Source: Escherichia phage vB_EcoM_ASO2A. Taken from it: a DNA stretch of 64,000 nt. Shown one piece after another: positions 4,381 through 63,169 of this stretch. The DNA is taken from the sequence record MZ726793.1. One strand, given 5' to 3'. The notes under the pieces are model-generated. The model had not been told where the DNA came from. It was given only the letters and a program-made list of their open reading frames with translations, and did no database searches. The position numbers and the translations under genes were made by a program. The stretch's first letter is position 1, and each line of letters opens with the position of its first letter.

Positions 4381-4428
4381 TTATCACGTAGGGCGGGAAT
4401 GTTTCCCGCCTGATTTAGGAGTCATATC

Positions 4429-4741: not shown

Positions 4742-5110
4742 ATGAGCAAATCAGCAATTAAAGCACTTGAAAAAGCACAAGAAGTGATCGCAACGTCAAC
4801 CACTGGCGCAAAGGTTAATCTTGTTGGTTATCTGACAGATGAAACTATCCGTAAAAATTGGCGTAATGCTGATTTACTGGCTTGCTTATTGATTAATAGT
4901 GTCGCTAATGCTTTCCAGTGCGAAACAGCCGAGAGCCTGGAGGAAAACTTGTTTGATAATATGGATCAAGCCATTGAAACCTATATACAATCAAACATGG
5001 ATAGCTGGAACAGTAAAACATGGCCCGACAATTTACGCGATACAACTGATCAACTGATCCGCCTTGCCCTGATGGTTGAACGCGATAACGTTCACAACCG
5101 CACAAAGTAA
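4742..5110 (+). CDS. hypothetical protein
   Basis: 122-aa ORF; RBS AAGAGGAAAATAAAA-ATG. Confidence 0.55.
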   Translation: MSKSAIKALEKAQEVIATSTTGAKVNLVGYLTDETIRKNWRNADLLACLLINSVANAFQCETAESLEENLFDNMDQAIETYIQSNMDSWNSKTWPDNLRDTTDQLIRLALMVERDNVHNRTK

Positions 5111-5120
5111 GATTATACAA

Positions 5121-5148
5121 GGGGCGCACTAAGCGCCCTTTCTTTTTG
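5121..5148 (+). terminator. Rho-independent terminator
   Basis: GGGCGC-ACTAA-GCGCCC followed by TTTCTTTTT. Confidence 0.65.
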
Positions 5149-6659
5149 CCTAAATAATGTTGATAGATTCCGCCTATGGAAAACCGACACAGAACAAAAC
5201 TGAATAAATAGCGGTATCGAGCTAATCAACCATTAAACGAATAACCATACCTCCCAGGGTAACAGGCTGTTAGAGAGCCATTTAGAGCGGTTAAAATCGA
5301 TCAACAACCAACAACAAACCATCAAAAACACCCTTTTACCTCCTTTCTAGTGCAATGATAACCATTATCATCTATCCATGTTTATCTATGCAATATAAGT
5401 GCATAACTATAATGTTGATAATAGTTCGCAACAACTAACTAACCAACAACCTAAAACAATAAGCAAACTAATCATAATCAAAGGAATAATAGCAAGATGA
5501 TTGATAACGACAAACAATCAAACTATGATGAATACTAAGCAAGATAACGATAATACGACAAAACAACCAACTAACGAACAATAACAAACGAAACCATTAA
5601 AATAATAACTATTAGCAAAATAGTGCCTGAATGAAATCATTACAAAACGAATCATTCACAGGATCATCATTAGCACGCTATGCCGGACACATAGCGAGCT
5701 AATAATAAGCCAACTACACCCCAACAATCATAACCATCGGTGATGGTTATTTCTTGTTACTGCGTAGCTTGCAATAATTGCAAGCGTAATACGCTTACAC
5801 TTATTGCGCTGGCTTATTATTAGCATTATATGTAATTACCAAGATCATAACATTAGCGCAATAACAATAATCATTGTGGTAATTACAAGATGAAATCATT
5901 AGCAAGATGAATAATTGCACGTAGCAACATGAGCGAATAGCGACAGGTTGCATAGTGTGCACATAGATGTACACGCAGTGTATAAACATACAAGAAAATA
6001 AAGGCTAATCTTTCGGGGGCGAATACTATCGCGTAGCGATATGTTGAGCATCTTCTCTTAAACGTAAATAAAATCAGAAAATTCTTGATTTATTTTAGTT
6101 TTTATGTTAATAAACGTTTAAATAATAATCATTCTCATATAAATAATAGTCTGCTTGTCATGAGCGGGATCAGTTGACAATGTTCCGTCATATGATGAAG
6201 TTGCCAAACCATTGATAAATAAGTGTTTGTGTGATTTATAATCAAGTGGCCCACCTTGTCGCTATGTTGGCATGAGCCTTGCATAAGTCCTTGAATACGA
6301 ATGATAATTATTCTCATTCTCATGATATTTGGGAATTGTCGCTGCGTGGACCTGACGGCCCGAAAATTCGCGTTAAGCACTTCTTACGTATGCGCCATGA
6401 TTTTTGCCATATGATATTGATTCTATTAGATATTCTTGCCATGATTGCCATGAAACAGGGTGTCCCGAAATAATCTCTCCCCGTAGATATTTTGGGTTAC
6501 TTTTTATACAAGAGTGGGGTGTCAAAAATAATCGGTATATATGGGATAATTGATAGGAATCCCCTATGATAATTCGATTGTAATTCCCTGAGATTGATCG
6601 TATGATGTTGGTGATTGATGATTGCCATGAAAGATGGCTAACGATGAGAGGAGATTATC
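5141..6659. repeat. 1.5 kb non-coding A-rich region with short direct repeats
   Basis: No ORF with RBS; top strand A-rich and G-poor; repeated ATTAGCAAGATGA, GATTGCCATGAAA and ATCATTCTCAT motifs. Confidence 0.5.
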
Positions 6660-7034
6660 ATGCAAGAGAGTAAAAATGTTCCGTTGAGTAGTGCAACATT
6701 GCTTCGCTTCTATAAAGCATGGATTGCCAACTATCCTGCAATGAATCGCACAACGAGTGGCTTATGTGGTTGTCTGGTGGATTATGTAGATGATTTTGTT
6801 GGTGAGACAACTAGAGAAGAAGATAGAAAATGGCGGGATAGTTTGTTGGACCGTTTGAAATATGAAATGAGGAAACAATTTACATGTGCAGGGCTGGACT
6901 ACAATCTTCCGTTCAATGCAGATTGCATGGATTACCTTTCAGAGTGTATAAACTTGGCGTGTCATACCAACACGTTACGTCTTCAATGGGTGAAAGACAG
7001 AATTGAAGATGCAAATAATGCTTGCATTGAATAA
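6660..7034 (+). CDS. hypothetical protein, paralog family A (GLC...WVKDR)
   Basis: 124 aa; SD GAGGAG; shares FY..W, GLCxxL, PF and R.xWVKDR motifs with five other ORFs. Confidence 0.6.
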   Translation: MQESKNVPLSSATLLRFYKAWIANYPAMNRTTSGLCGCLVDYVDDFVGETTREEDRKWRDSLLDRLKYEMRKQFTCAGLDYNLPFNADCMDYLSECINLACHTNTLRLQWVKDRIEDANNACIE

Positions 7035-58895: not shown

Positions 58896-59088
58896 TTACT
58901 ACCTCCATACGATCTAAAAAGTCATTCACAAATCTCCAGTAACGTTGACCTGTTCTAAGATCTTCATAGATAACCACAGGATCAAACACTTTAGATATTC
59001 CGGCAGGTTTTGGAAATTCCACTACTGTATATAAACCACCTTTTGCTACACAAGAATAGGTTACGCCTGTAATTGGATAGTTGCTCAT
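58849..59088 (-). CDS. hypothetical protein
   Basis: 79-aa ORF. Confidence 0.45.
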   Translation of the reverse strand: MSNYPITGVTYSCVAKGGLYTVVEFPKPAGISKVFDPVVIYEDLRTGQRYWRFVNDFLDRMEVVSGENTEEVIKAKERY

Positions 59089-59279
59089 TTCTTTACGTAC
59101 TCCATGATTGGGGTATGGTCGCCAGTAAGCGTAACACGGCTGTAGGACACATCTTGTGTCTTCAACGTATCAATCCACTCTAAGAAGTGTTCTTTAGCTT
59201 CTGTGTAGTTCTGTGTGCCTTTAACAACGTGTATACCATCTAGCGTTACACGGAATACCATTTGAATAACGTCTTTCAT
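59085..59279 (-). CDS. hypothetical protein
   Basis: 64-aa ORF. Confidence 0.5.
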   Translation of the reverse strand: MKDVIQMVFRVTLDGIHVVKGTQNYTEAKEHFLEWIDTLKTQDVSYSRVTLTGDHTPIMEYVKK

Positions 59280-59392
59280 TTCTTACCTCCTTTGTTGTCA
59301 AAGTAGCTTACCAGAACATCGTGAACCACACACATGGCAAAAATCAGAACAATTGTTGCCAGGATTGGGTTCTCACTAATTAGTGCTATCAT
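59276..59392 (-). CDS. small membrane protein (38 aa)
   Basis: ORF below track cutoff; SD GGAGG; ATGA overlap with next gene. Confidence 0.4.
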   Translation of the reverse strand: MIALISENPILATIVLIFAMCVVHDVLVSYFDNKGGKK

Positions 59393-59699
59393 CTTTAACC
59401 ACCTCCAATTGCCTTTCTAGTTTGACTCTGTTTGAGAACTGATAATGACACAACTTACATTGCATGTCAACAATCTGATCGTGATTTAACCCTACAATTT
59501 TAACTTCCTTTGCACCATCCCACTCCAAATACTCAAAGCCATCCAAATGATTACTCTTGTACAACAGGAATGCTATCTGCTTCCATTCAATCTGAATATC
59601 ATTTAAATGATATGCTGCACAGAAGATATCCTCATAGTAAAAGACGATCATTGTCATTGCTTCGTCAAGTACAACTACCTCTTGTCTTGTAAATCTCAT
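59376..59699 (-). CDS. hypothetical protein
   Basis: 107-aa ORF; first gene of the leftward block; SD AGGAGG; GCGTC-AGA-GACGC hairpin in its 5' leader. Confidence 0.5.
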   Translation of the reverse strand: MRFTRQEVVVLDEAMTMIVFYYEDIFCAAYHLNDIQIEWKQIAFLLYKSNHLDGFEYLEWDGAKEVKIVGLNHDQIVDMQCKLCHYQFSNRVKLERQLEVVKDDSTN

Positions 59700-59952
59700 T
59701 CTAGCCTCCTAAACGCGTCTCTGACGCACTTTTATATATAAGATGATAAATCACCTTACCTAGTAAGTAAACTTGCTCTACAGCCTCTTATGAAGCTTAT
59801 GTTATAGGCTATACTATTGCTACCTGTTTAAGCAAGGTTTTTGCACACAGAAAATAATTTTTAATAAAACTCTTGACTTTTGTGTTCGAAGTATGCTACC
59901 CTAGAAATCTATTAACGAGCGCAGCGAGTTAAGGTTTTAGGTTGGTGATGTA

Positions 59953-59985
59953 GTACTCTGTACTCAAGTACTGTACTCCGTACTA
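59953..59985. repeat. Five tandem GTACT(C) iteron-like repeats
   Basis: GTACTC, GTACTC, GTACT, GTACTCC, GTACTA within 33 bp. Confidence 0.6.
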
Positions 59986-60030
59986 GATTAATAATTATTA
60001 AATATTAATAATAAATAATTATTAGATCTA
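59986..60030. repeat. AT-rich palindromic tract
   Basis: TTAATAATTATTAA palindrome and TAATAATAAATAATTATTA, essentially pure A/T. Confidence 0.55.
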
Positions 60031-60117
60031 ACAAACAGGTACAGTGTATCAGAACTGGTACGTACAGATCAACTTCTATCAATTAAAAATAAAATAATAA
60101 ATTATTATAAATAATAC

Positions 60118-60146
60118 TTGATCTATAGATTAGTATGAAGTACAGT
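60118..60146 (+). promoter_or_regulatory. sigma70-like promoter
   Basis: TTGATC, 17 nt, TACAGT; then SD GGAGGTG and ATG 60179. Confidence 0.45.
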
Positions 60147-60178
60147 ACGAAACATCTTAACAAGAATGGAGGTGTGCA

Positions 60179-60364
60179 ATGATTAGTGAGAATCCGTGCA
60201 AATGGCATCATGTGCCTATTAAAGATTGTATGTCTTGTAATCCACGTTCTATTTATAACATTGCATCTTATGATGATGACAATGTGTTAGACGATGATGA
60301 AGGCTGGGAGGATTTAGATTGGACTGGTTATGAAACCAAAAAGGATAAAATTATTCCTAGTTGA
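60179..60364 (+). CDS. hypothetical protein
   Basis: 61-aa ORF; SD GGAGGTG. Confidence 0.5.
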   Translation: MISENPCKWHHVPIKDCMSCNPRSIYNIASYDDDNVLDDDEGWEDLDWTGYETKKDKIIPS

Positions 60365-60401
60365 CTTAAGATATCCTTCGTGCTAAACTAGAAGTGAGGA
60401 G

Positions 60402-60653
60402 ATGCCGATCACTCCCCATTTGGGGTTCGAAGGATATATGCAAAATAGCTTTTATTTTAGGTGCCGTGCTTGTAATAGGCATTTGACAAACCACTCCAGA
60501 CGTGATAAAAATGGAGTCATCAAGGAATCAGACCTCTGTTCTATTTGCACAGGTTTGGCTTTTGATGATAGTCCCGAAAGGGTTTATCAGCATCAATGTA
60601 TAACAGACGTTCTCGTGTCAAACTTGGTAGAGGACGAACAACTAACAGATTAG
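60402..60653 (+). CDS. cysteine-rich protein (zinc-finger-like)
   Basis: 83 aa; CRACNRH...CSIC; SD GAGGAG. Confidence 0.5.
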   Translation: MPITPHLGFEGYMQNSFYFRCRACNRHLTNHSRRDKNGVIKESDLCSICTGLAFDDSPERVYQHQCITDVLVSNLVEDEQLTD

Positions 60654-60661
60654 GAGGAACA

Positions 60662-60910
60662 ATGTCTCTATTAGAAAAACACGTGTTTGAAGATGGTAAC
60701 GGCAATGCAGTTTTTCTTTTCCATCCAGAAAAATACACATCTGAAAACAATGGTACAACTTCTATTGTAATCACTAAAGATGTTAAAGTTATTGATTTCT
60801 TGGCTCTGATGCGAGAGATGGATCTTGAAATTAATACTTTTAACGCAGAAGCTTTGGTTGTTGCTCTTCTGGAAAAGAAAGATAGTGAAGAAGTAGCAGA
60901 ATATGCTTAA
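60662..60910 (+). CDS. hypothetical protein
   Basis: 82 aa from ATG 60662; SD AGGAGG. Confidence 0.5.
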   Translation: MSLLEKHVFEDGNGNAVFLFHPEKYTSENNGTTSIVITKDVKVIDFLALMREMDLEINTFNAEALVVALLEKKDSEEVAEYA

Positions 60911-60917
60911 ATAACTA

Positions 60918-60947
60918 TTGACAAACGTATCCTTCATATGTTAGGAT
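60918..60947 (+). promoter_or_regulatory. sigma70-like promoter (conserved ACTATTGACAA box)
   Basis: AACTATTGACAA recurs at 61501 and 62471; -10-like TTAGGAT. Confidence 0.5.
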
Positions 60948-60961
60948 ACGTTCATCAAGTG

Positions 60962-61148
60962 TGGTAACAGGGTCGTTGACTTTTGTTAAGAGGGGCTTGC
61001 ACTGCGGTAGTGTTAGAGACTACTTCTTCAGAGGTTAGCTACCAAAGAGGAAAAGGAATAGTCTCGGCTCAAGAACTTTTACGCTGAAAGTTGGGCTTGG
61101 TCTTAGAGAATGTAGCGGTTCTCTACAATCGTCAGCGTCTCTGTTACC
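60962..61148 (+). ncRNA. Candidate structured small RNA upstream of the tRNAs
   Basis: 187 nt closed by GGTAACAG...CTGTTACC with nested stems (GAGACTA..TAGTCTC; TAGAGAA..TTCTCTA); no ORF. Confidence 0.3.
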
Positions 61149-61156
61149 ACATTTAT

Positions 61157-61231
61157 GGCCCTGTAGCTCAATGGGAGAGCTGTCGGCTCATAACCGATAG
61201 GTAGCTGGATCGAAACCAGCCAGGGCCACCA
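61157..61231 (+). tRNA. tRNA-Met (anticodon CAT)
   Basis: Manual cloverleaf: acceptor GGCCCTG/CAGGGCC, D-stem GCTC/GAGC, loop CTCATAA, T-arm GCTGG/CCAGC, encoded CCA. Confidence 0.8.
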
Positions 61232-61233
61232 AC

Positions 61234-61308
61234 GTCTTTATGGTGTAATGGATAGCACAGGAGTCTTCTAAACTCTTAGTCAAGGTTCGATTCCTTGTAA
61301 AGACACCA
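61234..61308 (+). tRNA. tRNA-Arg (anticodon TCT)
   Basis: Acceptor GTCTTTA/TAAAGAC, loop CTTCTAA, T-arm CAAGG-TTCGATT-CCTTG, CCA. Confidence 0.8.
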
Positions 61309-61503
61309 GAACATTTTAACATGAATTAGCTCAAGTGATTTGAACCCACTACTGATCATGGTGGCAGAGAATGAGGCAAGTATGTCAGACATTATAAACA
61401 AAGGCCACGGTTATATTAGAAGACATAAATGCTCGAAGAGCACCGTTCGTGGAGAACGGGGTTGGTGGAGTCACCATTCATGGTAAAATGTTTTAAAAAA
61501 CTA

Positions 61504-61533
61504 TTGACAACTAACATTATTTTATGTTAGATT
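61504..61533 (+). promoter_or_regulatory. sigma70-like promoter (ACTATTGACAA box) for tRNA transcription
   Basis: TTGACA, 17 nt, TTAGATT; tRNA-Ser begins about 9 nt downstream. Confidence 0.5.
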
Positions 61534-61541
61534 ATAAGTAT

Positions 61542-61632
61542 GGAAGGGCAAATCGACGTGGCGACGAAAACGGTCTTGAAAACCGCCGAGCTTGAAAGAG
61601 CCTTGGGAGTTCGACTCTCCCTCCTTCCGCCA
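61542..61632 (+). tRNA. tRNA-Ser (anticodon TGA), long variable arm
   Basis: Acceptor GGAAGGG/TCCTTCC, loop CTTGAAA, T-arm GGGAG-TTCGACT-CTCCC, CCA; D-arm atypical. Confidence 0.7.
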
Positions 61633-61637
61633 GATTA

Positions 61638-61723
61638 GGTAGATTGGTGAAATGGTAGCCACGACAGTTTGCTAAACTGTAGTCGGAAACGGCGTGTAGG
61701 TTCGAGTCCTACATCTACCGCCA
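61638..61723 (+). tRNA. tRNA-Ser (anticodon GCT), long variable arm
   Basis: Acceptor GGTAGAT/ATCTACC, arm ACAGT-TTGCTAA-ACTGT, 15-nt variable arm, CCA. Confidence 0.8.
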
Positions 61724-61853
61724 AGTTCTTTTTAATATAGCTTACTTTAGCAGAGTAAATCTTCGGCAAGTGGCGGTAACCACTTTACCGATAACTCATA
61801 GTTAGTGGTGTGAACACTGGCTATTTTAAAAAGAATTTAAATATTAGTATTTA

Positions 61854-61941
61854 GGTGAGTTAATTCCGTAGGGGTAGCGGGGCAGACTGTAAATCTGTTA
61901 TCATTGCGATTCGGGTGGTTCGACTCCATCACTCACCACCA
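61854..61941 (+). tRNA. tRNA-Tyr (anticodon GTA), long variable arm
   Basis: Acceptor GGTGAGT/ACTCACC, GCAGA-CTGTAAA-TCTGT as in E. coli tRNA-Tyr, CCA. Confidence 0.8.
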
Positions 61942-61947
61942 AATTAA

Positions 61948-62033
61948 GATGAGTTGGCTGAATGGTTTAAGCGGCGGACTGTTAATCCGTGTTCGAAAGA
62001 ACGATATAGGTTCAAATCCTATACTCATCGCCA
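61948..62033 (+). tRNA. tRNA with anticodon GTT (Asn by position) and an atypical long variable arm
   Basis: Acceptor GATGAGT/ACTCATC, arm GCGGA-CTGTTAA-TCCGT, 15-nt variable arm (GTTC-GAAA-GAAC), CCA. Confidence 0.5.
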
Positions 62034-62040
62034 GAATTAT

Positions 62041-62117
62041 GGACTTGTAGAGTTAAGGTAAACCCCCAGTCGCCAAGAGGCTTCTGGAATTGCAGGTATC
62101 GAATCCTGCCGAGTCCC
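62041..62117 (+). ncRNA. tRNA-like element (degenerate, no canonical anticodon arm)
   Basis: Acceptor-like GGACTTG/CGAGTCC and T-arm-like GCAGG-TATCGAAT-CCTGC (8-nt loop); no 5-7-5 anticodon arm; no CCA. Confidence 0.2.
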
Positions 62118-62123
62118 AGCTTT

Positions 62124-62198
62124 GCTCCTATAGTATAATGGCTATTACAACGGTTTTGTAATCCGTGGATCTCTGTTCGATTCAGAGTGGGAGCACCA
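62124..62198 (+). tRNA. tRNA-Thr (anticodon TGT)
   Basis: Acceptor GCTCCTA/TGGGAGC, loop TTTGTAA, T-arm CTCTG-TTCGATT-CAGAG, CCA. Confidence 0.75.
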
Positions 62199-62473
62199 AC
62201 ACAACATTAAGGGCACTGTGATTGATCGTCGTATCCTGTGCACAAGGTCTGTTCGAAAGACAGTGTTCTTAGTATTGTGTTGATCACACAAAAAGAGTTA
62301 CCTGAAACTTGACCGGAGTAGGGTTGGATGGGGCAAAAGAAGAAGCGGCTCTCCCATCGACAGCAACGAAGAATAATATTTGACTTTGGTTTTGTATTAT
62401 TTTAAGTTAGCTTACCGAACGTAGGGCTAGTCACCCAACGGGATACTCGTCACTGTCCCACTCAATAAAACTA

Positions 62474-62503
62474 TTGACAACCAATAGTAAAATGTAGTAT
62501 AGT
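62474..62503 (+). promoter_or_regulatory. sigma70-like promoter (ACTATTGACAA box) upstream of tRNA-Gly
   Basis: TTGACA, 18 nt, TATAGT; then GTAGGGCG and tRNA-Gly. Confidence 0.5.
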
Positions 62504-62514
62504 AAAGATGTAGG

Positions 62515-62588
62515 GCGTTCTTGGTGTAGCGGTAGCATTCCGTCCTTCCAAGTCGGCGGCACGAGTTCGATCCTCGTAGAACGCTCCA
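62515..62588 (+). tRNA. tRNA-Gly (anticodon TCC)
   Basis: Acceptor GCGTTCT/AGAACGC, loop CTTCCAA (stem has one U-U mismatch), T-arm ACGAG-TTCGATC-CTCGT, CCA. Confidence 0.65.
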
Positions 62589-62686
62589 AATTATTTAATA
62601 AAGGGTTGCCAGAAAACTTTCTCTTTTACTCATGGTTTTCTCCTTCTCTCACACCTCTTCTGGTTGCCCTTCATTAAATGATTTAT

Positions 62687-62762
62687 TGGTTTGTAGTGTA
62701 GTCCGGTAGCACACGACACTTTGACTGTCGTAGGTTTGGTTCAAATCCAGACAGACCAGCCA
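62687..62762 (+). tRNA. tRNA-Gln (anticodon TTG)
   Basis: Starts with U like E. coli tRNA-Gln; acceptor TGGTTTG/CAGACCA, arm CGACA-CTTTGAC-TGTCG, CCA. Confidence 0.75.
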
Positions 62763-62855
62763 TATAACAAAGGTGAGTCACTACCTCAAGTGTGAAGTTA
62801 AAAACGAGGAGCCGCCGAACACTTTCTTTTGCGGTGTACCTTTAGAATGTTATGA

Positions 62856-62932
62856 CGGAATTTAGCTCAGTTTGGTAGAGTGTACGCTTTGGGAGCGTAT
62901 TGTCGCAGGTTCGAATCCTGCAATTCCGACCA
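62856..62932 (+). tRNA. tRNA-Pro (anticodon TGG)
   Basis: Starts with C like E. coli tRNA-Pro; acceptor CGGAATT/AATTCCG, arm TACGC-TTTGGGA-GCGTA, T-arm GCAGG-TTCGAAT-CCTGC, CCA. Confidence 0.8.
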
Positions 62933-62938
62933 ATTAAA

Positions 62939-63012
62939 TGTTTCGTAGTTCAATGGTAGAACCCACGACTGATAATCGTGAGATACAAGTTCGATTCTTG
63001 TCGAAACAACCA
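62939..63012 (+). tRNA. tRNA-Ile (anticodon GAT)
   Basis: Acceptor TGTTTCG/CGAAACA, D-stem GTTC/GAAC, arm CACGA-CTGATAA-TCGTG, CCA. Confidence 0.75.
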
Positions 63013-63014
63013 GT

Positions 63015-63084
63015 TTCCCGTTAGACTTACAGGATAAGAGTTCCACAATTTATTGTGACGCTGGTTCGAATCCAGCACGGGATA
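63015..63084 (+). ncRNA. tRNA-like element with aberrant anticodon arm (possible pseudo-tRNA)
   Basis: Canonical T-arm GCTGG-TTCGAAT-CCAGC and 6-bp acceptor, but the anticodon region folds as CACAA-TTTA-TTGTG; no CCA. Confidence 0.25.
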
Positions 63085-63090
63085 CATAAT

Positions 63091-63169
63091 AGCGGGATAG
63101 AGGAGTCTGGTCGTCCTCGCCAGTTTCATATGCTGGAGATCATTGGTTCAAATCCAATTCCCGCCTCCA
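63091..63169 (+). tRNA. tRNA with anticodon CAT (Met, or Ile2 if modified)
   Basis: Acceptor AGCGGGA/TCCCGCC (1:72 mismatch), 11-nt D-loop, arm CCAGT-TTCATAT-GCTGG, CCA. Confidence 0.7.

Follow-up and report, generated by a model that had tools for sequence, protein, structure and literature searches.

The 480-bp non-coding interval between positions 59700 and 60178 of the window (the whole stretch of DNA analysed here, 64,000 nucleotides) reads best as an early-transcription control region, in which a conserved insert of GTAC repeats and an A/T palindrome would occupy the leader of a rightward promoter, PR1. We hold this explanation at slightly below an even chance. Comparison with related phages suggests that most of the interval is promoter architecture, with one promoter pointing leftward and two pointing rightward. 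The interval could also, judging by its layout, be a replication origin, and the two functions need not be mutually exclusive; T4 and T7 have origins that are themselves promoter regions.

Genomic setting of the interval

The source phage is a Phapecoctavirus, a phAPEC8-like E. coli myovirus with a genome of about 150 kb. Phapecoctaviruses and their phi92-like relatives are broad-host-range coliphages that are frequently put forward for therapy and food biocontrol. Our literature search found no transcription start, binding data or transcriptome for any Stephanstirmvirinae phage, and no paper on replication initiation in them. Two ORFs for hypothetical proteins bound the interval, one of 107 aa reading leftward from an ATG at 59699 and one of 61 aa reading rightward from an ATG at 60179, and the claim made for it from the sequence only, that these 480 bp are non-coding, is borne out. 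No credible small gene is hidden inside, where the only ORFs, both on the minus strand, are A/T-rich nonsense of 25 and 42 aa. To the left runs a 37-kb block of nucleotide-metabolism, recombination and repair genes, and to the right small ORFs are followed by a 10-tRNA cluster, lysis genes, the terminase gene (4.4 kb downstream of the interval) and structural genes. An Rfam covariance-model search of 59000–61200 (E ≤ 1) matched a single tRNA at 61157 and no family in the interval itself.

Predicted promoters and leader hairpins

The sequence-only reading had placed outward promoters at the flanks. Promoter-like sites are indeed present, but there are three of them and not two: PL, reading leftward, and the tandem PR1 and PR2, reading rightward (Table 1). 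Each has -35 and -10 elements of the sigma-70 type, a spacer within the 16–18-bp range and a position kept across relatives, the lineages compared being Phapecoctavirus, the phiWec group, phi92, FKP3 and Citrobacter phage Tr1. PL scored 9 of 12 consensus matches in the promoter scan, and its geometry is kept in phi92 (TTTACT..), FKP3 (TTGACA-17-TATCAT) and Tr1 (TTGACT-17-TACCAT). The scan also flagged the hairpin at 59715–59727 as terminator-like on the plus strand; lying upstream of the start codon but downstream of PL, and retained in phiWec phages, it looks instead like a leader hairpin of the leftward mRNA.

Table 1. Features of the interval, in coordinates of the window.
Feature	Position	Strand	Details
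Leader hairpin GCGTC-aga-GACGC (small)	59715–59727	-	In predicted 5' UTR of leftward mRNA, just upstream of ribosome-binding site
PL, predicted sigma-70-type promoter	59743–59771	-	-35 TTTACT 59771–59766; 17-nt spacer; -10 TATCAT 59748–59743
PR1, predicted promoter	59873–59902	+	-35 TTGACT 59873–59878; 18-nt spacer; extended -10 TGcTACCCT 59894–59902
PR1-transcript 5'-terminal hairpin	59912–59932	+	TTAAC-GAGCGCAGCGA-GTTAA; invariant core GAGCGMAGCGAG at 59917–59928
Short repeat (T)TAAGGTTT(T), variable number	59930–59945		1–3 copies among Phapecoctavirus genomes
GTACT direct-repeat array	59953–59984	+	Five pentamers, starting at 59953, 59960, 59968, 59973 and 59980
Long imperfect inverted repeat	59968–60148		Arms 59968–60023 and 60093–60148, 56 nt each, 71% complementary, 69 nt between
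A/T palindrome	59984–60031 (~48 nt)		38 uninterrupted A/T at 59987–60024; flanks TAGATT and AGATCTA
Conserved box	60024–60036	+	AGATCTAACAAAC; family consensus AGATCTAACAGAC
GTAC-bearing hairpin/inverted repeat	60038–60065		GGTACAGT-gtatcaga-ACTGGTAC, overlapping palindrome GTACGTAC
Second A/T-rich tract	60081–60117	+	Directly upstream of PR2 -35; second least stable 40-bp window of the genome
PR2, predicted promoter	60118–60148	+	-35 TTGATC 60118–60123; 17-nt spacer; -10 TACAGT 60141–60146

PR1, for which a start near 59909 is predicted, keeps its block (A)TGnTACCCTA and the upstream TTGAC in five of the five lineages and in metagenomic relatives. Its transcript would begin with a hairpin built on the invariant GAGCGMAGCGAG core, a GC/GC mini-stem with a GNA triloop and tandem G.A pairs, which has a single occurrence in the window and likewise in the genome. 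Around this core the flanks covary (TTAAC/GTTAA, TTGCC/GGTAA, CTGCC/GGTAG and TGAC/GTTA), with 81.6% of cells paired, against 30–54% when the partners are slid, and with compensatory changes at four pairs; G:T wobbles are limited to the top strand, an indication that the pairing is one of RNA or of that strand. A wide metagenome scan for the pattern TACCCTA..GAGCGMAGCGAG returned mostly unrelated hairpins. In Justusliebigvirus genomes the PR1 module occurs again at a second site, preceding a membrane-protein ORF, and through this reuse promoter and hairpin together behave as a gene-expression module; other early promoters of the genome likewise carry conserved leader modules.

PR2 has positional equivalents in phi92 and phiWec (TTGACT-18-TAGAGT), FKP3 (TTGACC-17-TACACT) and Tr1 (TTGACC..TATAGT), and is followed by a ribosome-binding site (GGAGG, 60168–60172) ahead of the ATG. 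Its -10 is embedded in GTACAGTAC (60140–60148), so that one GTAC pair sits on the -10 with its inverted copy within the GTACT array. An A/T tract of 35–50 bp adjoins the PR2 -35 in every lineage compared, and that of the window (60081–60117) is most likely an UP-type element of PR2. A protein probably binds the conserved AGATCTAACAAAC box, which is shared by the window, UP17, phi92, Tr1 and metagenomic relatives. A second AGATCT lies 46–65 bp away in most relatives and a third in the PR2 spacer of phi92 and phiWec, the positions of these boxes being conserved in the family; neither GATC nor AGATCT is enriched in the Phapecoctavirus interval.

Repeats, palindromes and duplex stability

The five copies of GTACT counted in the sequence-only reading are there (three GTACTC, one GTACTG and one GTACTA, with two AGTACT palindromes within them), at about +45 to +75 relative to the predicted PR1 start. 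The tandem GTACT(C) array that they were said to form is not regular: with spacings of 7, 8, 5 and 7, they are closely packed direct repeats, and Tandem Repeats Finder called no array at 59953–59984. Seven non-outlier Phapecoctavirus records (tuntematon, EF1-1, Schickermooser, UP17, Ro121lw, 536P1 and WPEC1) retain the full set of five. phAPEC8 has a mutation in the third pentamer, and in DW-EC slippage has deleted 13 nt and left three of the five copies. phiWec, phi92 and Tr1 lack the array, two related GTAC motifs take its place in FKP3-type phages, and the sister lineages that lack both the array and the first A/T palindrome retain the other architecture. In the Phapecoctavirus alignment the segment of array and palindrome has the lowest share of variable columns (6.8%, against 10–15% in adjacent segments); the short repeat at 59930–59945 reaches 41%, against 7–15% in the rest of the region.

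The GTAC tetranucleotide is otherwise depleted, with 70 occurrences in the 64-kb window against some 177 expected (observed/expected 0.39), and GTACT itself occurs 36 times against 97.5 ± 10.4 expected. Within the interval ten GTAC sites fall in 196 bp, compared with 0.97 per kb genome-wide, a local enrichment of about 50-fold with a Poisson probability of ~1e-14 per window and ~1e-11 genome-wide. This clustering is not due to chance. It is the only ten-site cluster, and the densest concentration of GTAC, in the complete genome of the relative Schickermooser, in which the sites of the interval are kept in 10 of 10 cases against 35 of 52 outside it (Fisher p = 0.03). A role for GTAC in a late-promoter motif was looked for upstream of 17 late genes, and no such motif was seen. 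The GTACT unit also fits the half-site of E. coli TrpR operators, GNACT (PMC9413887), but a TrpR operator was rejected, the inverted half-sites 8 bp apart (GNACT-N8-AGTNC) being absent from the region with up to one mismatch allowed.

What had been described as a 45-bp pure-AT palindromic tract is palindromic and A/T-rich, although its uninterrupted A/T run is 38 bases long and lies inside a palindrome of about 48 nt. The arms (59989–60006 and 60007–60024) are 89% complementary in an inverted-repeat search, and folding predicts a DNA hairpin. No other stretch of the 151-kb Schickermooser genome reaches 39 of 40 A+T. Among the 40-bp windows of that genome it also has the weakest duplex, at -33.6 kcal/mol where the mean is -50.2 ± 3.3, and of the 200-bp windows the weakest again falls in the interval. 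An A/T-rich, easily melted tract does lie beside the repeats, as was proposed. The further GTAC-containing inverted repeats stand as well. They were recovered as GGTACAGT..ACTGGTAC with GTACGTAC at 60038–60065, where relatives have a different hairpin (AGAC..GTCT or AACA..TGTT) at the corresponding place behind the AGATCTAACA box, and as GTACAGTAC, the mirror of GTACTGTAC (59968–59976) in the array, this pair lying in the two arms of the long inverted repeat. The right arm of the 56-nt inverted repeat is annotated as a repeat_region in the phages tuntematon, nepoznato and anhysbys. An invertible segment between these arms was considered and rejected, none of the 14 records compared over this region, by alignment or direct reading, being inverted. 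All these features, with their conservation and statistical uniqueness, are direct observations.

A proposed control region for divergent early transcription

Two large transcription blocks would diverge from the interval. Leftward transcription by host RNA polymerase would begin at PL, at the head of the block for nucleotide metabolism, recombination and repair, and rightward transcription at the tandem PR1 and PR2, the conserved stem-loop at the start of the PR1 transcript probably serving in RNA stabilisation or protein recruitment. Between two family-conserved AGATCT boxes, the PR1 leader would then contain the Phapecoctavirus-specific insert of five GTACT units and the 38-nt A/T palindrome, an insert whose inverted-repeat partner is the GTACAGTAC overlapping the PR2 -10. 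We infer, beyond the promoter activity itself, that this insert is a binding platform for a putative GTAC-recognising factor, either phage-encoded or sensitive to DNA modification. Bound roughly 45 to 75 nt into the PR1 transcript region and over the PR2 -10, such a factor could shut off or time rightward transcription, and pairing of the arms in the PR1 RNA may add to the switch.

This reading is favoured by the promoter geometry kept in five lineages, the reuse of the PR1 module, the covariation of the hairpin, the A/T tract adjoining PR2, the leader modules of other early promoters, the placement and retention of the GTAC sites, the low variability of the array and palindrome, and the missing hallmarks of an origin. 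Against it, no candidate GTAC-binding protein was identified, and the complete array is not strictly required, DW-EC managing with three units. If the ATAC and GTAT readings in two related records (see below) are real, GTAC itself is not the recognised sequence. Early promoter regions of other phages (phi29 A2c/A2b/A3, T5 and T4) similarly have close divergent or tandem sigma-70 promoters, A/T DNA upstream of the -35 and short repeated or palindromic motifs that overlap promoter elements. They differ from the present interval in its repeated motif, covarying GAGCGMAGCGAG hairpin and pure-A/T palindrome, for which we know of no described counterpart and no regulator.

Possible replication origin and other readings

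The strongest competing reading is an origin activated by transcription, in the manner of T4 oriF/oriG or the T7 primary origin; we take it seriously, though on balance we doubt it. PR1 would transcribe into the A/T palindrome as the unwinding element, and the RNA would form a persistent R-loop or open the duplex, where the phage primase-helicase and polymerase would load; the GTAC units could position or gate an accessory factor and, if methylated, act like the GATC clusters of oriC, P1 oriR and P1 pac. In agreement with this, the interval contains the genome's two least stable 40-bp windows, its least stable 200-bp window, its only stretch with at least 39 of 40 A+T and its only ten-site GTAC cluster. 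A conserved, predicted promoter aims into the palindrome about 75 nt from its predicted start, an order of promoter and A/T tract that is kept across the subfamily. That the pure-A/T palindrome is unique in 151 kb and extremely unstable is also better explained by an unwinding element, because an UP element needs no such second tract. The cumulative GC skew has a local minimum at the interval, and the convergent junctions (~18 and 95 kb) lie near the midpoints of the divergent ones (54.7 and 130.3 kb), as two bidirectional origins would be expected to give. However, the skew follows gene orientation in all four blocks, every one of its four turning points coinciding with an orientation switch, and its global minimum is at the other divergent junction (~130 kb in Schickermooser), where the minimum is equal or deeper and there is no A/T tract or repeat. 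The interval has no initiator gene next to it, and in Schickermooser the genes for polymerase and primase-helicase are 40–75 kb distant; the region contains no IHF consensus and one relaxed match to a DnaA box (59839), the window total of 11 against 10.3 expected being that of chance. The interval has no sequence similarity to plasmids or E. coli, their origins included. Also unfavourable are the sister lineages that do without the GTACT array and first palindrome, the use of the PR1 module elsewhere as an ordinary promoter, and the second A/T tract, which in every relative directly precedes a conserved promoter, the position expected of an UP element. With T4 oriF (uvsY) and oriG (gene 34) and the T7 primary origin the interval shares a conserved promoter facing a nearby, easily melted A/T tract downstream, independence from iterons or a Rep gene, and an intergenic, regulatory setting in a large virulent phage with its own replisome. 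It differs in that PR1 is of sigma-70 type, neither MotA-dependent nor a phage-RNA-polymerase promoter, and in the ~75 nt, with a hairpin and five GTACT units, between start and tract; there is no sequence similarity, and the likeness is one of layout.

The classical iteron origin of the sequence-only reading, in which a Rep-type initiator would bind the GTACT units and melt the adjoining A/T tract as at lambda ori or plasmid origins, now appears very improbable. At this strand switch direct repeats do adjoin an A/T-rich tract, a pairing shared with lambda ori, P1 oriR (which also has five short methylation-site repeats) and plasmid origins, and initiator sites of five nucleotides occur elsewhere, the GAGGC repeats of the SV40 origin being one case. 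The label of iterons nevertheless fails: the units are 5 bp long and not 17–22 bp, they are packed irregularly at 5–8 bp with no helical phasing and no array called by Tandem Repeats Finder, the neighbouring 61–107-aa hypothetical proteins are not initiator-like, and DnaA and IHF sites are missing. The repeats are moreover lineage-specific, absent from related genera and variable in number (three in DW-EC, one unit mutated in phAPEC8). The SV40/polyomavirus core origin similarly combines pentanucleotide repeats, an A/T tract and an imperfect palindrome between divergent promoters, but this is an unrelated virus with unrelated replication machinery, no large-T-type initiator was recognised here, and the resemblance is architectural only.

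We give only a small probability to the ten GTAC sites being targets of a phage or host methyltransferase that form, with the A/T palindrome, a modification-sensing switch gating the firing of a transcription-primed origin or the shut-off of early rightward transcription. The state of the cluster, fully modified or newly replicated, would be the signal, a logic like that of oriC/SeqA or P1 on a different motif, in a genome that otherwise purges GTAC. GTAC is the most-changed of the 256 tetramers in BI-EHEC (64%; a nanopore-only assembly) and KKP 3954 (56%), where most GTACs read ATAC or GTAT; its change is 25–27% in Schickermooser and EF1-1, baseline records whose sequencing platform was unchecked. 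These motif-specific discrepancies, confined to two GenBank records, may hint at GTAC modification if they are real. DW-EC, from the same nanopore pipeline as BI-EHEC, retains the GTACs of the region, and a Pfam scan of five ORFs of the leftward block picked as putative methyltransferases found no methyltransferase domain. Known clusters of methylation sites (GATC in oriC/SeqA, P1 pac and the Mu mom promoter) are comparable as local concentrations of a palindromic tetranucleotide near promoters and an unwinding-prone tract; here, however, the motif is GTAC, GATC is not enriched, and we know of no reader protein for it.

Similarly improbable, on the folding model, is an element acting at the RNA level, in which the left arm (GUACUGUACUCCGUACUAG...) of read-through PR1 transcripts would pair with the right arm (...UAGUAUGAAGUACAGUAC) around an A/U hairpin, the long duplex being a processing site (e.g., for RNase III) or a stability determinant in the leader of the rightward operon. 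The fold of 59908–60178 (-58.5 kcal/mol, against -45.6 ± 4.1 for shuffles, z = -3.1) has the arms paired, and the leader opens with a covarying hairpin. On the other hand, a DNA inverted repeat yields an equal fold score whatever its role, the arms are missing in relatives, no Rfam family matches, and the long-range stem has no covariation support, the Phapecoctavirus sequences being too similar to give it. A packaging or terminus signal (a pac site or terminal-repeat boundary) is scarcely credible. The short repeated motifs 4.4 kb upstream of the terminase gene recall P1 pac, in which repeated methylatable hexamers lie on both sides of the cleavage region, and the GenBank record of phage nieznany starts and ends inside the region. 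But Schickermooser has a 329-bp terminal repeat (Korf 2019, PMC6563267), which we confirmed in the sequence and which maps to window positions 6047–6375, about 53.5 kb from the interval, so that the interval is not at the physical ends of the genome; a 342-bp direct terminal repeat was found by PhageTerm for the related phage BME3 (PMC12210895). With the nieznany ends artefactual, a product of assembly overlap, the packaging reading is largely refuted.

Significance for the biology of these phages

The interval is the most distinctive cis-acting DNA of the genome, and it is therefore the obvious first place to seek both the origin and the early-to-late switch. For engineering it would be a site to avoid for payload insertion and a source of strong, predicted promoters. 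Two concrete handles lend themselves to testing, the conserved promoter with its hairpin and the cluster of GTAC sites kept in a genome that otherwise purges them. If the interval is merely a promoter hub, its biology is ordinary; if the GTAC cluster does respond to the modification state of the DNA, virulent phages would gain a new case of epigenetic control.

Genomic context of the divergent junction

The 2 kb around the interval at 59700-60178 share 99.9% identity with Escherichia phage MRostami-2023b and 95–99.5% with about 60 other Phapecoctavirus genomes, i.e., phAPEC8-like myoviruses of the subfamily Stephanstirmvirinae. In annotated relatives, a 37-kb block begins leftward from the interval's left edge, with genes for ribonucleotide reductase, thymidylate synthase, ligase and exonucleases as well as numerous small ORFs. 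From the right edge, a rightward block runs through small ORFs, 10 tRNAs, spanins and terminase (4.4 kb downstream of the interval) to the structural genes. The strand switch described in the sequence-only reading is thus real: the genome has two divergent junctions, and the interval is one of them. The two ORFs that open the rightward block might encode regulators that bind zinc or factors for host takeover.

We reassembled the complete genome of the Phapecoctavirus Schickermooser (151,194 bp), which has four transcription blocks, with divergent junctions at 54.7 and 130.3 kb and convergent ones at about 17–18 and 95 kb. The other divergent junction (117 bp) has two predicted promoters and lacks an A/T tract or repeats.

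Features of the interval and its surroundings
Feature	Position	Strand	Description
PL	59771-59743	leftward	predicted sigma-70-type promoter, kept among compared relatives
PR1	59873-59902	rightward	predicted promoter TTGAC(T/A)-18-TGnTACCCTA, kept among compared relatives
PR1 hairpin	59912-59932		10–15 nt past PR1 -10; invariant 12-nt core GAGCGMAGCGAG (59917-59928), covarying flanks
GTACT pentamers (five)	starts 59953, 59960, 59968, 59973, 59980	+	direct sequence reading
AGATCT boxes	60024-60036 (window copy)		one to three copies; consensus AGATCTAACAGAC
Variable hairpin	between AGATCT boxes and PR2 A/T tract		variable sequence; part of conserved plan
A/T tract	abuts PR2 -35 directly		35–50 bp; part of conserved plan
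PR2	60118-60146	rightward	second predicted promoter, TTGATC-17-TACAGT in window
First rightward ORF	60179-60364	+	61 aa, small, Cys/His-rich, acidic tail
Second rightward ORF	60402-60653	+	83 aa, small, Cys/His-rich, two CxxC pairs
tRNA cluster	61157-63169		10 genes (Met, Arg, Ser, Asn, Thr, Gly, Gln, Pro, Ile, Met), directly downstream of interval
Leader element TAGGGCGG	276-288, 563-575, 1794-1806, 4389-4401		after rightward early promoters

A predicted promoter plan conserved across Stephanstirmvirinae

Comparison with the phiWec group, phi92, Klebsiella phage FKP3, Citrobacter phage Tr1 and metagenomic relatives revealed a conserved six-part plan at the junction: PL, PR1, a hairpin, AGATCT boxes, a variable hairpin, and an A/T tract with PR2. 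In the PR1 hairpin, 81.6% of cells are paired, against 30–54% in slid controls, with compensatory changes in four pairs, and its G:T wobbles are confined to the top strand, which suggests pairing in the rightward RNA. Phapecoctavirus carries this PR1-plus-hairpin module in single copy, and Justusliebigvirus genomes (the Justusliebigvirus-like contigs L029, L033, L117, L137, and L160) hold a second one upstream of a membrane-protein ORF of about 90 aa (MDVMTMRFIILFL...). Being duplicated before another ORF, it behaves as an expression module.

The GAGCGMAGCGAG core is a GCGNAGC mini-hairpin bordered by tandem G.A pairs, found again with complementary flanks in numerous unrelated contigs, both metagenomic and viral (L017-L177), e.g., ..TCATTCCGAGCGAAGCGAGGAATC.., and looks like a widespread hairpin-cap module. 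Within the small-ORF region, the leader downstream of each predicted rightward early promoter contains the conserved element TAGGGCGG(C/G)AATG(GTGC), with five matches against 0.18 expected; these leaders are a second class of promoter-plus-leader module in this genome.

The GTACT array and the A/T palindrome

The five tandem GTACT repeats of the sequence-only reading are present in number, although as packed direct repeats spaced by 7, 8, 5, and 7 nt and not as a regular tandem array; irregularly spaced 5-bp units of this kind do not fit the definition of iterons. Its 45 bp of pure A/T shrink to an uninterrupted run of 38 nt (59987-60024), which does sit within a palindrome of ~48 nt, and the additional GTAC-bearing inverted repeats were found at 60038-60065 and 60140-60148. 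The segments 59968-60023 and 60093-60148 form an imperfect inverted repeat with 56-nt arms. GTAC is strongly avoided in the window (70 observed vs. about 177 expected, 0.39 of expectation), as is GTACT (36 vs. 97.5 ± 10.4), and 10 GTAC sites are packed into 196 bp of the interval (Poisson probability about 1e-14). Throughout Schickermooser, the interval is by far the densest GTAC cluster (10 in 250 bp vs. 6 for the runner-up) and its A/T tract the sole stretch reaching at least 39/40 A+T, while the two weakest 40-bp duplex windows and the weakest 200-bp window all fall inside it.

The array and the first A/T palindrome (59984-60031) are absent from phiWec, phi92, and Tr1; at the corresponding site, FKP3-type phages show two related GTAC motifs. 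In phage UP17, two perfect AGATCT sites flank the palindrome, and this Phapecoctavirus-specific element is thus bracketed by two boxes conserved in the family, the left of which adjoins the array. All ten GTACs are kept in tuntematon, EF1-1, Schickermooser, UP17, Ro121lw, 536P1, and WPEC1, and one is lost in each of phAPEC8 and anhysbys. Retention in Schickermooser is 10/10 in the interval against 35/52 elsewhere (Fisher p = 0.03), and variable columns are fewest in the array and palindrome segment (6.8% vs. 10–15% for its neighbors). DW-EC has a 13-nt slippage deletion leaving three pentamers. Phapecoctavirus genomes differ in the copy number (one to three) of the short repeat TTAAGGTTT(T) just past the PR1 hairpin (59930-59945). 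The record NC_052659 (nieznany) starts and ends within the interval, overlapping by about 190 bp, with one overlap copy carrying a 63-bp deletion equivalent to window 60046-60108; this reflects either an artefact of assembly or a variant present in a sub-population.

A different pattern was found in BI-EHEC and KKP 3954, where most GTACs of the interval read ATAC or GTAT. Where the records align with the window (roughly 39 kb each), GTAC changes more than any other of the 256 tetramers (64% of sites in BI-EHEC and 56% in KKP 3954, mostly to ATAC/GTAT), against 25–27% in the baseline records Schickermooser and EF1-1, whose sequencing method was not checked. The BI-EHEC assembly is nanopore-only (PMC8686590), and 8 of its 14 coding GTAC changes are non-synonymous (28% background), an excess suggesting basecalling errors at a modified motif. 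DW-EC, from the same pipeline, stands apart and retains the GTACs of the interval. The differences reflect either such basecalling error or real purging under restriction pressure.

Replication origin, packaging site or early control region

The Schickermooser terminal repeat was reported as 328 bp (Korf et al., PMC6563267); the ends of its record are identical over 329 bp, mapping to window 6047-6375, and the related phage BME3 has a 342-bp repeat by PhageTerm (PMC12210895). For phages of this type, the physical ends therefore lie outside the interval, which is unlikely to be the packaging site. The equivalent of the Schickermooser direct terminal repeat lies in about 1.5 kb of gene-poor sequence (5110-6660), and this repeat is the least stable duplex of the genome at the 100-bp scale.

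A classical iteron origin, as first proposed, is also unlikely. We found neither a DnaA-box cluster nor an IHF consensus in the interval, and no initiator gene adjoins it, the replisome genes being 40–75 kb away in the Schickermooser annotation. Cumulative GC skew over the whole genome does have a local minimum at the interval (about 54–55 kb), but the global one is elsewhere (about 130 kb). Each divergent junction has a minimum and each convergent one a maximum (about 17 and about 95 kb), so the turning points track gene orientation and GC skew cannot separate replication from transcription. A transcription-activated origin is a serious rival, compatible with a promoter region: the conserved, predicted PR1 would fire into the most readily melted DNA of the genome, the same layout as in T4 oriF/oriG and the T7 primary origin, and the genome layout suggests that on a concatemer map the convergent junctions lie near the midpoints between divergent ones. 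We found no paper on replication origins or transcriptomes of Stephanstirmvirinae.

The best-supported interpretation is that the interval is a multi-promoter early control region. The array and A/T palindrome specific to Phapecoctavirus fall inside the predicted PR1 leader, and the predicted PR2 -10 carries a GTAC pair. It is possible that the long inverted repeat acts at the RNA level, the predicted fold containing it having z = -3.1. For the early control region, the arrangement of the array in the PR1 leader and the GTAC pair on the PR2 -10 would suit a putative factor timing or shutting off rightward transcription.
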